Shown here in pieces: positions 39,580 through 42,188 of a stretch of DNA of 44,592 nucleotides. A program made the translations under genes and the position numbers. Each line of letters begins with the position of its first letter. Position 1 is the stretch's first letter. Under the pieces are notes generated by a model. It ran no database searches. It was not told the DNA's origin and worked only from the letters and a program-made list of their open reading frames with translations. Source of the DNA: Escherichia phage PSK8; sequence record PP541515.1; one strand, written 5' to 3'.

Positions 39580-39852
39580 ATGCCGACTATTGAATCTCGA
39601 ATTGAACTGGACACTAGCTATGATGCAGTCACCAGACAGTACATTGGTGTGGCCTATGATTACAAAACTGGTGAGAAGCTAGTGGAGGTGAGACAATGGG
39701 ATGCCTATTGGTTAAGACAGAGCCTCCATGATGCGGTGTCCTCCTTCTTGAAGGAGTGGCCTACATGCGACCAAACTTCGACTTCGGAGCTACAGTATCG
39801 GAAGACAATAATCTCATCCTATGGCCAACTGAAGGTAATCGAATCGCTTTAA
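39580..39852 (+). CDS. Hypothetical protein (90 aa), 3' end overlaps exonuclease start
   Basis: GGAGAA RBS then ATG 39580. Confidence 0.45.
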   Translation: MPTIESRIELDTSYDAVTRQYIGVAYDYKTGEKLVEVRQWDAYWLRQSLHDAVSSFLKEWPTCDQTSTSELQYRKTIISSYGQLKVIESL

Positions 39853-40793
39853 TAGACGCTGATATGCTACCCTACATCGTAGGTTATACAATCAGTGACA
39901 TGACTTATGTACGAGCTACAACTCGTGTTAAGTCAGGACAAGTCCCATCAATCAAAGATACACCTGAGTGTAAGCAAGCATGTGACCGTGTGAATTCCTT
40001 GCTTAACTCTTGGGTGTATGCAGCAGAGTGCGATGCTGCTAAGTTATTCATGACGAAATCAGAAGCTAACTTCCGTGTTCGCCTAGCATTCACCAAACCT
40101 TACAAAGGTCAACGTAAGACCGAGAAGCCTCCATTCTTCTATGAATTGCGAGAGCATCTCTTAGAGGTTCATGGTGCAATCTTGGCAGATGGAGAAGAAG
40201 CTGATGACCTCATGAGCATAGCACAATGGGACAGCCATCGCCGCTTCCAGCAAGATACAGGTAACGAGTTCCCTATCGGTAGTCCAGAGCATAAAGCATT
40301 CTCTGATACTTGCATCGTGTCCTTAGATAAGGATTTGATGATTGTTCCCGGTTGGCATCTTCAGCCGGGTCAAGAGAAGAAGTGGGTAGAACCTATGGGT
40401 TGGCTTGAGTTACGCCGTAAGGCTAATGGTCAGGTCAAAGACCTTAAAGGTGCTGGCCTCATGTTTCATTATGCACAGATGATTATCGGTGATGATATTG
40501 ATAACTATGCTGGCATACCAGGACGTGGCGCTAAATACGCCTATGATCTTCTCAAGAGTTGTAAGACAGAGAAAGAGTTGTACATGGCAGTGCTTGGTGC
40601 TTACAAGGCTAAGTTCGGACATGGACAAGTTAAGATTAAGAATTACCGAGGTGGTTATCTAATCGGCAAGGCATTTGATCTGATGCTTGAATGTGGTCGC
40701 TTGGCACACATGGCAAGATTTAAAGGAGACATATGGCGAGCCGATAAGAATCCAATCTTGTGGGGAGATGATGCGGAATGGTTAGCAAATTAA
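39765..40793 (+). CDS. 5'-3' exonuclease (T7 gp6-like, FEN family)
   Basis: Motifs ALIDADMLPY, GEEADDLMS, VSLDKDLMIVPG parallel recalled T7 gp6; AAGGAG RBS. Confidence 0.8.
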   Translation: MRPNFDFGATVSEDNNLILWPTEGNRIALIDADMLPYIVGYTISDMTYVRATTRVKSGQVPSIKDTPECKQACDRVNSLLNSWVYAAECDAAKLFMTKSEANFRVRLAFTKPYKGQRKTEKPPFFYELREHLLEVHGAILADGEEADDLMSIAQWDSHRRFQQDTGNEFPIGSPEHKAFSDTCIVSLDKDLMIVPGWHLQPGQEKKWVEPMGWLELRRKANGQVKDLKGAGLMFHYAQMIIGDDIDNYAGIPGRGAKYAYDLLKSCKTEKELYMAVLGAYKAKFGHGQVKIKNYRGGYLIGKAFDLMLECGRLAHMARFKGDIWRADKNPILWGDDAEWLAN

Positions 40794-41188
40794 AAGCATC
40801 GGAGGTGGCAGCTTATAAGAAGGAGTTACTAGAAAAGCAAGGGTGGAAGTGTCCACTATGCGGTGGTAGTCTCAAGGCTGTTACTCCTGTAAACCGTGTA
40901 CTTGACCATGACCATGAGACAGGCTTCTGCCGTGCTGTTGTATGCCGAGGCTGCAACGGTGCAGAGGGGAAGATTAAGGGTGTTATCTCTGGTTATGGTA
41001 AGGCAGGTAATAACCGTTACTTCCAGCTTCAATGGTTAGAGCGACTATATGAGTATTGGAAGTTACATAGTACGCCTCAGACAGATAAGTTGTATCACAA
41101 ACATCAAACGGAGGCAGAGAAGCGCGAGGCTAAGAACCGTAAGGCACGCCTTGCTTATGCAAGAAAGAAGGAGGTTAAAGTTGGGTAA
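40778..41188 (+). CDS. Endonuclease VII-type (HNH-like) junction-resolving nuclease
   Basis: CPLCGG...DHDHETGFCRAVVCRGCNGAEG matches Endonuclease_7 family signature. Confidence 0.8.
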   Translation: MVSKLKASEVAAYKKELLEKQGWKCPLCGGSLKAVTPVNRVLDHDHETGFCRAVVCRGCNGAEGKIKGVISGYGKAGNNRYFQLQWLERLYEYWKLHSTPQTDKLYHKHQTEAEKREAKNRKARLAYARKKEVKVG

Positions 41189-42188
41189 GCTTCGCAGCTT
41201 GTACAAAGACTCCGAGGTACTTGATGCAATCGAGCAAGCTACCGACGAGAAAGGTAATGTTAATTACAATGAGATGGCACGTGTATTATCGTGTCACCCT
41301 GTGGGTAAGAAGATTACCCGTCAGTTGGCTCGATACTGGCATGGTCAATTCAAGAAGACCAAGAAGAATGGTGATTACTACCAAACTCTTCTGCAAGAAG
41401 ATAAGCGTATCAAAGAAGAGCGTAAGCTCAGGACTCCTGACCGCTACGAGGATTTGGCTATTGTACCATTGCCTGACTCGCCTCATCGAAGTGTACTGGT
41501 AATTCCTGATACTCATGCACCTTATGAGCATCCAGATACCTTAGAGTTCCTTGCAGCAGTTGCAGCACGTTATCGTCCAGACACGGTGGTACATCTTGGA
41601 GACGAGGCAGATAAACATGCCTTGTCATTCCATGATTCGGACCCCAATCTGGATAGCGCTGGCATGGAGCTAGAGAAGGCTCGTGTCTTCATGCATAAGC
41701 TGCATAAGATGTTCCCTGTTATGCGCCTGTGTCATTCTAACCACGGTTCTATGCACTTCCGTAAGGCAAGCGCCAAGGGTATCCCTGTGCAATACCTGCG
41801 CACCTACCGTGAAGTCTTCTTCCCAAATGGAGGTGGCGACCAGTGGGATTGGCAGCATACACATGTACTTGAGTTACCGAATGGCGAACAGGTGGCATTC
41901 AAGCATCAACCTGCTGGCTCTGTCCTAGCAGATGCAGCGCATGAGCGTATGAATCTAGTGTGTGGTCACTTGCATGGTAAGATGTCTGTGGAGTATGCAC
42001 GTAATACTCATGAGCAGTATTGGGCAGTACATGGTGGGTGTCTGATTGATGAGTCATCTCGTGCATTTGCCTATGGTCGTGAGTCTAAGTACAAGCCAGC
42101 ATTAGGTTGTGTGGTTATTCTGGATGGTGTGCCGCACATTGTCCCGATGCAAACTAACAGCGACAATCGCTGGGTTGGTAAGATTTAG
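41181..42188 (+). CDS. Calcineurin-like metallophosphoesterase (TTG start proposed)
   Basis: AGGAGG RBS 6 nt before TTG 41181; motifs DTHAP, GDEAD, HSNHG. Confidence 0.7.
   Translation: MGKLRSLYKDSEVLDAIEQATDEKGNVNYNEMARVLSCHPVGKKITRQLARYWHGQFKKTKKNGDYYQTLLQEDKRIKEERKLRTPDRYEDLAIVPLPDSPHRSVLVIPDTHAPYEHPDTLEFLAAVAARYRPDTVVHLGDEADKHALSFHDSDPNLDSAGMELEKARVFMHKLHKMFPVMRLCHSNHGSMHFRKASAKGIPVQYLRTYREVFFPNGGGDQWDWQHTHVLELPNGEQVAFKHQPAGSVLADAAHERMNLVCGHLHGKMSVEYARNTHEQYWAVHGGCLIDESSRAFAYGRESKYKPALGCVVILDGVPHIVPMQTNSDNRWVGKI

Follow-up and report, generated by a model that had tools for sequence, protein, structure and literature searches.

The nuclease cluster of Escherichia phage PSK8

The window analyzed here, a stretch of 44,592 nucleotides (nt) from Escherichia phage PSK8 (PP541515.1), carries a cluster of four genes located one after another on the plus strand: a small open reading frame (ORF) of 90 amino acids (aa; 39580..39852), a T7 gp6-type 5'-3' exonuclease of 342 aa (39765..40793, ATG 39765), an endonuclease VII of 136 aa (40778..41188, ATG 40778) and a calcineurin-like metallophosphoesterase of 335 aa (41181..42188, TTG 41181). 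An initial annotation, made from the sequence alone, had called attention to the overlaps among these genes and to the TTG start of the last one, and had proposed that the start assignments were ambiguous and might hide alternative isoforms. The window belongs to a K1-5/K1E-like coliphage (genus Vectrevirus, Molineuxvirinae, Autographiviridae, SP6 supergroup), and appears to be the entire phage genome, rotated with respect to K1-5 (locus L047), so that position 15152 of K1-5 corresponds to position 39580 of the window.

The region 39400-42300 displayed 92-95% DNA identity with many K1-5/K1E-like coliphages, the figure for Vectrevirus genomes being about 94%, some 80% with Salmonella phage SP6, and 68-78% with related Proteus, Lelliottia, Pectobacterium and Klebsiella phages; a megablast search with the whole region retrieved 107 related records. 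The comparisons presented below are based on two sets, 15 annotated GenBank loci and 31 IMG/VR loci, in which the four proteins were located.

The RefSeq record of K1-5 (NC_008152) and the SP6 record in its current version (AY288927.2) annotate the same layout: the genes overlap by 88 or 91, 16 and 8 nt, and the phosphoesterase gene measures 1008 nt. K1-5 gp22-gp25 and SP6 genes 54, 21, 22 and 23 share with the window the four genes, their order, and the TTG start with AAGGAGG, whereas the differences are allelic only, the SP6 allele of the small ORF being 28% identical in its body. In Proteus phage Premi the genes are laid out likewise, but the first overlap is shorter (55 nt). The arrangement is already in the reference annotations and is ordinary compact podovirus gene packing. 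According to the K1-5 RefSeq annotation, 19 of the 51 gene junctions overlap, the longest overlap being 88 nt and the second 38 nt, and the phosphoesterase TTG is the sole TTG start among 52 coding sequences. Both the overlaps and the starts of the nuclease cluster were kept in relatives of several genera and, judged by this distribution, the overlaps are ancestral within the subfamily.

The exonuclease matched PHROG 107 over residues 4-330 (E = 6.6e-73), and its copies in the relatives are annotated as exonuclease. Its match to Pfam PF01367 (H3TH / 5'-3' exonuclease C-terminal domain) scored 23.8 bits, with a cut-off of 40; the NCBIfam matches were weak and far under their cut-offs, and no PDB sequence match was obtained at E <= 0.01. 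An acidic motif at residues 28-38 (IALIDADMLPY) was kept as (I/V)AL(I/V/L)D(A/G)DM in all the loci; in FEN-family enzymes the N-terminal acidic metal-binding motif is catalytic.

The endonuclease VII was recognized by Pfam PF02945 (48.1 bits, cut-off 23.6) and by a PDB search that returned T4 endonuclease VII (1e7d/1en7, E = 3.4e-8), with query residues 14-99 aligned on residues 12-100 of the chain. Its translation contains the motifs CPLC (25-28), DHDH (43-46) and CRGCN (56-60), which we take to be the zinc-cysteine pairs and the H-N-H-type motif of the T4 enzyme. The metallophosphoesterase matched PHROG 221 over residues 1-334 (E = 8.5e-106) and contains the motifs DTH, GDEAD, SNHG and GHLHG; its Pfam PF00149 score of 21.6 bits is borderline (cut-off 21.5) and was obtained with the ORF 41049-42188 translated in full (379 aa), not with the 335-aa product. 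No match for this protein was found in the PDB sequence search.

Start sites of the three enzyme genes

The initial annotation had stated that the small ORF overlaps the exonuclease start by 88 nt, that the endonuclease VII gene overlaps the 3' end of the exonuclease gene, and that the phosphoesterase appears to start at TTG 41181, six nt after an AGGAGG inside the endonuclease VII 3' end. These coordinates were confirmed on inspection, and the ortholog alignment, which had been named as the test able to refute them, upheld both the starts and the overlaps instead of removing them.

The small ORF and the exonuclease gene overlap at 39765-39852 (88 nt). A Shine-Dalgarno sequence, AAGGAG (39751..39756, plus strand), which the small ORF reads as Lys-Glu(-Trp), is located 8 nt 5' of ATG 39765. 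The exonuclease N-terminus that follows, M(S)RPNFxFGAxVSEDNNLILWPT, is conserved, its first part M(S)RPNFxFGA being kept in all Molineuxvirinae loci, and in the Proteus phages the gene starts with a GTG immediately 3' of an in-frame TAA. The RefSeq record of CrRp3 (L002, NC_047920; 1929-2903) places the exonuclease start at a TTG 57 nt, or 19 codons, late, with which the overlap is removed; an in-frame ATG with the conserved exonuclease N-terminus is present 57 nt 5' of the annotated TTG.

The endonuclease VII gene and the end of the exonuclease gene (stop at 40793) share 16 nt, an overlap that was invariant in the relatives. Its Shine-Dalgarno, GGGGAG (40762..40767, plus strand), lies within the Trp-Gly-Asp codons of the exonuclease, and reads tgGGGAGa in the relatives. 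The ATG occupied the same position in all the loci, being replaced by GTG where a homing endonuclease gene was inserted upstream. Upstream of this ATG the window has only 6 nt of open frame and most relatives have 3-12 nt, and the T4 endonuclease VII alignment shows an offset of 2 residues, which supports ATG 40778 as the start.

The phosphoesterase gene overlaps the endonuclease VII gene by 8 nt, and its Shine-Dalgarno, AAGGAGGT (41168..41175, plus strand), is contained in the endonuclease VII 3' end. The AGGAGG core (41169-41174) is followed by a spacer of 6 nt and then by TTG (41181-41183), which is in the reading frame of ORF 41049-42188; the weakest start codon is combined with the strongest Shine-Dalgarno of the four. 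A strong Shine-Dalgarno was kept before this gene in the relatives, either as the whole AAGGAGG or as its GGAGG/GGAG core, and the N-terminus, (M)GKLRSLYKDSEVL, was conserved from the TTG column on. That column held TTG in Vectrevirus and Zindervirus, GTG in Acadevirus (Proteus phages), phD2B, K13PH07C1L and two further loci (L025 and L026), and ATG in K44PH129C1, L018, Nerthus and MJG. An in-frame TAA is found immediately 5' of the start in phD2B and K13PH07C1L, and no in-frame start codon is present upstream of the TTG in SP6 and BP12B. The first 15 codons of the gene displayed normal synonymous variation (0.39, gene mean 0.41) and are therefore considered to be translated in frame, which excludes the downstream ATG.

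Public records of this gene disagree. The UTI89UKE2 record (L003; 3206-4348) gives a phosphoesterase gene of 1143 nt from an upstream ATG, 135 nt early, and omits endonuclease VII; the F4M1D record (L012; 2986-3945) starts it at a downstream ATG, 48 nt late; and the UAB_Phi78 table lists a 304-aa phosphoesterase, also from a downstream ATG (PMC4837284). The protein is thereby recorded as 304, 320, 335 or 380 aa, and on the comparative evidence the 335-aa form from the TTG is the correct one. The ambiguity of the starts is accordingly real in database practice, since public records place them differently, but only there; the alignment of about 45 related loci fixed the three N-termini of exonuclease, endonuclease VII and phosphoesterase, with one product per gene.

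The proposal that the cluster hides alternative isoforms found no support, and we regard it as highly improbable. In such a case the phosphoesterase might start at ATG 41049 (379 aa) or at ATG 41274 (304 aa), the exonuclease might start at GTG 39756, or a -1 frameshift might fuse the small ORF to the exonuclease. The phosphoesterase frame is indeed open from 41049 in the window, and the long and short forms have been annotated in UTI89UKE2, on the one hand, and in F4M1D and the UAB_Phi78 table, on the other. However, ATG 41049 was absent in SP6, BP12B and fTuEco01 and was not conserved even within the genus; an upstream start is barred by adjacent stops in the Proteus phages, phD2B and K13PH07C1L; and the 31 residues that precede M32 were kept as protein across genera, with synonymous changes. 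As for GTG 39756, it overlaps the exonuclease Shine-Dalgarno and is devoid of one of its own, and the in-frame TAA of the Proteus phages precedes their exonuclease start. A -1 shift is possible in terms of phase, the exonuclease frame being -1 relative to the small ORF, but no XXXYYYZ heptamer was found in any frame of 39580-39852, and this candidate was discarded.

Some structural variants were observed at the junctions of the cluster. HNH homing-endonuclease genes were inserted exactly at these sites (L008, 2288-2749; L011, 4460-4897; and L018, L021, L028-L030 and L034), namely between the exonuclease and endonuclease VII genes, between the endonuclease VII and phosphoesterase genes, or upstream of the exonuclease gene; insertions of the first two kinds change the next start, to GTG for endonuclease VII and to ATG for the phosphoesterase. 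In Pectobacterium phage PP1 (L010, same contig as L033) a single ORF of 1047 nt (2762-3808) joins residues 1-76 of endonuclease VII to residues 62-335 of the phosphoesterase, a natural deletion and fusion or an assembly error. A dip in synonymous diversity, the second of the cluster, was detected within the phosphoesterase gene at codons ~85-105 (~41436-41500; 0.16-0.24, mean 0.41).

The small ORF and the 88-nt overlap

The small ORF corresponds to K1-5 gene 19 / gp22 and matched PHROG 10319 (E = 1.3e-38). Its ATG is preceded at 8 nt by a GGAG Shine-Dalgarno (39568..39571, plus strand), embedded in a leader that hardly varies from genus to genus. The protein opens with MPTIESR, which is conserved, and continues with a hypervariable body; LKEWP, again conserved, comes next and is followed by a tail translated from the exonuclease gene in its +1 frame. 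LKEWP is the exonuclease Shine-Dalgarno, AAG GAG TGG, in its protein reading. No Pfam or NCBIfam family was matched and the fold matches were generic only. Neither was similarity to any DNA-repair protein detected, the name "DNA repair protein" being derived solely from the label of PHROG 10319. Among 5.8 billion proteins the family formed 15 clusters, and all the clusters with a named source came from SP6-like phages; on these searches, the family is virtually restricted to this group.

An AlphaFold2 model, built from 16 sequences only, gave three strands and a helix, with a mean predicted local distance difference test score (pLDDT) of ~80 for residues 1-10 and 89-95 for residues 11-60, and of 41-51 for the tail (residues 61-90). 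The alleles of the different phages share a common pattern of strand, D(G)E, strand and helix. An ORF in the +1 frame across the exonuclease start was present in every Molineuxvirinae locus with a locatable exonuclease N-terminal motif, and the ATG and the GGAG 8 nt upstream were kept despite bodies that have diverged to 25-40% identity. Among those loci, L023 was the exception, the start codon of its small ORF having been lost to a stop.

These data bear on the possibility that the small ORF is no gene but a chance open frame in the leader, which would make the 88-nt overlap an artefact of annotation. Such a view agrees with the lack of a Pfam or NCBIfam family, with the many records that leave the ORF unannotated (fTuEco01, PP1, phD2B and K44PH129C1, as well as SP6 until recently), and with its being broken in L023, missing in L029 and L030, and reduced to 31 codons in phD2B. 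We nevertheless consider it very unlikely, as the frame, the ATG and the GGAG were the same in all motif-locatable loci except L023, the divergent alleles share one secondary-structure pattern, residues 1-60 are modelled with a pLDDT of ~80-95, and the PHROG 10319 match is strong. What the sequence comparison does suggest is that the gene is dispensable, and that the exonuclease can do without it.

The overlap itself would be due to the small ORF lacking its own stop ahead of the exonuclease start, so that it would continue in the +1 frame until a chance stop, and the run-on would leave the protein with a non-conserved, disordered tail. By chance, the first stop of an alternative frame is expected after ~21 codons past the exonuclease ATG, and a run of 29 codons is therefore unremarkable. 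The extension of the overlap ranged from 52 to 118 nt among the relatives, and the small-ORF stop shifted with synonymous changes of the exonuclease, for instance TTA-ATA versus CTC-ATA-G. The variable sites within the overlap were distributed as 17/9/26 over the first, second and third positions of the exonuclease codons, that is, mainly at the third. The shifting stops, the third-position variation and the low pLDDT of the tail make the latter look like read-through until a chance stop.

The alternative is functional dual coding, with the tail of the small protein (residues 62-90) selected in its own right. Exonuclease codons 1-15 (39765-39810) displayed the lowest synonymous diversity of the gene (0.16, mean 0.37), no other stretch of 29 codons was as low as codons 1-29, and no such dip was seen at the gene starts of endonuclease VII or the phosphoesterase; moreover, the tail, TCDQTSTSELQYRKTI, was near-invariant in Vectrevirus, Zindervirus and the K44-like Klebsiella phages. 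On the other hand, the stop is not conserved and moves with synonymous exonuclease changes, the tail is different in the Proteus, PP1 and K13PH07C1L phages and is predicted to be disordered, and the same dip would be expected from constraint on the initiation region or from a homogenized recombination anchor beside an exchanged cassette. We thus hold dual coding to be unlikely. Some extra constraint or homogenization acts on the first 15 codons, and it could come from dual coding, from an RNA element or initiation region, or from a recombination anchor.

Probable exchange of the small-ORF body

The body of the small ORF coincides with a hypervariable, horizontally exchanged cassette (39601..39750, edges approximate, plus strand), delimited by the identity profile and by allele incongruence. 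Identity fell to 48-78% at ~39600-39750 between flanks of 96-100%. The 50-nt bin of the leader at 39515-39564 was 100% identical to SP6, in contrast with 60-90% in the adjoining coding sequence.

The distribution of the alleles did not follow that of the neighboring exonuclease gene (comparison loci L004, L005, L017, L019 and L022). SP6 and BP12B have exonucleases that are 100% identical and small-ORF bodies that are 28% identical, and the same was observed for L017 and L019 (100% and 40%); conversely, the window and BP12B share 83% of the exonuclease and 89% of the small-ORF body, and SP6 and L019 share 83% and 88%, respectively. About 30 phage records carried the allele of the window at 88-92% identity; any tblastn match at all was seen in 50, as compared with the 107 megablast relatives of the whole region. 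The small-ORF body would be an accessory cassette swapped via recombination in conserved flanks, the leader and MPTIESR forming the 5' flank, and LKEWP together with the first ~50 nt of the exonuclease gene the 3' flank.

The locus resembles the mosaic accessory-gene hotspots of lytic phages in its hypervariable body between near-invariant flanks, and in an allele distribution that is incongruent with the phylogeny of the neighboring gene across genera. It differs from them in that the small-ORF alleles are not unrelated genes but distant homologues that still share one fold pattern, and in that the 3' flank is the initiation region and first codons of an essential-type nuclease gene. As an instance of phage mosaicism, a known phenomenon, the swapped cassette is a side finding of modest weight.

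There is also a likeness to the class II genes 5.9-6 of phage T7, as in both the phage RNA polymerase transcribes a podovirus operon for DNA metabolism that has a small accessory gene directly 5' of the gene for a gp6-type 5'-3' exonuclease; we take gene 5.9, the RecBCD inhibitor, to be directly upstream of the gene 6 exonuclease.

Promoters, upstream hairpin and junction layout

The core of the SP6/K1-5-type phage promoter was matched 13 times in the window, as compared with 1.27 matches expected by chance, and 12 of the 13 were on the plus strand. The nearest promoter-like site upstream of the cluster is TACTGGACACTATAG (39077..39091, plus strand), and the next one, the core match TAGTTGACACTATAG (42186..42200, plus strand), overlaps the phosphoesterase stop and lies at the end of the block; the scan yielded no match between 39092 and 42185. 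A promoter is annotated in Proteus phage Pm5460 at the place matching the 42186 site. The sigma-70 promoter scan gave a site count that was not above that of shuffled sequence, and an Rfam scan of 38800-42400 returned a single sub-threshold chance match.

A conserved stem-loop followed by a short T-run (39521..39548, plus strand) separates the small ORF from the gene that precedes it (39117-39515). It has an 11-bp stem followed by CTTTTG, and the 96 nt around it (39505-39600) reached -25.9 kcal/mol (z = -2.6 versus shuffles). The stems of the relatives differ in sequence and yet pair (GCCCTGTCTGCC/GGCAGGG, CCCACC/GGTGGG and CCCG/CGGG), with compensatory changes in phD2B, PP1, K13PH07C1L and F4M1D, and the annotation of Proteus phage Premi has a terminator here. 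The hairpin and the leader, CGTAATAGTTATTGGAGAATGAATT (39521-39579), were better conserved across genera than the adjoining coding sequence. With its G+C-rich hairpin, its T-run, although short, and its compensatory changes, this element has the attributes of a candidate intrinsic terminator or attenuator.

The four genes would form head-to-tail cistrons on one strand, in the order small ORF, exonuclease, endonuclease VII and metallophosphoesterase, with no phage promoter between them. Since the promoter-like sites lie only at 39077 and 42186 and the hairpin lies upstream, the four cistrons are probably on one transcript that passes the attenuator. The cluster is thus best described as a block that is probably promoter-free and downstream of a terminator-like hairpin.

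Each of the downstream Shine-Dalgarno sequences is inside the preceding gene, and each stop is at or past the next start, features that were kept in the relatives. From this layout we infer translational coupling, whereby ribosomes ending one cistron would aid initiation on the next. In the window, CCTCCTTC (39740-39747) is complementary to the exonuclease Shine-Dalgarno (duplex -13.8 kcal/mol, z = -2.8), and the sequestering pairing was also significant in the CrRp3 (z = -3.0) and SP6 (z = -2.1) alleles; one possibility is that sequestration makes exonuclease translation depend on that of the small ORF. A universal sequestering hairpin as the coupling device was considered and rejected, as it was significant in 3-4 allele types only, with a mean z of -1.1, and the alleles are not independent.

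Immediately upstream of the cluster, the proteins encoded at 39117-39515 and 38007-38813 have acidic C-terminal tails whose last residue is aromatic (...AEEEF and ...EMDEDAEY, respectively). Their PHROGs are of function unknown, and the tails resemble what we take to be the DNA polymerase-binding tails of T7 gp2.5 and gp4.

Discussion

Taken together, the data favor the reading that the starts at 39580, 39765, 40778 and 41181 are as first proposed, that the overlaps are real, and that the genes make up a four-cistron DNA-metabolism nuclease block of the K1-5-like podovirus type, to which we assign a probability of roughly 85%. The junctions resemble those of known translationally coupled overlapping cistrons (ATGA, TAATG and longer overlaps), in that all three have the Shine-Dalgarno in the upstream coding sequence and the stop at or after the next start, and in that such junctions typically combine a non-ATG start with a Shine-Dalgarno that is strong. 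They differ in that 88 nt is much longer than the classical coupling overlaps. The TTG start, offset by the strong AAGGAGGT, together with the upstream attenuator, would hold the phosphoesterase and the nucleases at modest levels.

Several observations weigh against this reading of the cluster. The 88-nt overlap is long for termination-reinitiation coupling, and the sequestering pairing was not significant in the K13PH07C1L, F4M1D, L022, PP1 and phD2B alleles. The view of the overlap as a pure by-product leaves the low synonymous diversity of exonuclease codons 1-15 unexplained. The small ORF, besides being broken in L023 and truncated in phD2B, is missing in L029 and L030, where an HNH-like gene ends in ATGA at the exonuclease start. 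Finally, the literature search yielded no protein-level data for any of these starts, and the UAB_Phi78 annotation table was the only relevant item it gave on either the starts or the small gene.

A broader interpretation, which we find rather unlikely, is that the small ORF is a fast-exchanged host-interaction or anti-defence cassette, in a position like that of T7 gene 5.9, which would also gate exonuclease synthesis through the anti-Shine-Dalgarno of the window, CrRp3 and SP6 alleles, the site being exposed only by ribosomes reading through; the recombination anchors would then be provided by the invariant leader and by the unusually conserved first ~15 codons of the exonuclease.

The practical value of the four-cistron assignment lies in better annotation: three N-termini that are inconsistent across the GenBank records of SP6-like phages are now fixed comparatively, the "DNA repair protein" name of the small ORF should be abandoned, and endonuclease VII is missing from some records. 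The SP6-like phages include K1-capsule-specific phages used in therapy research, and for this group the swapped cassette offers a modest lead in the search for host-interaction and anti-defence genes.

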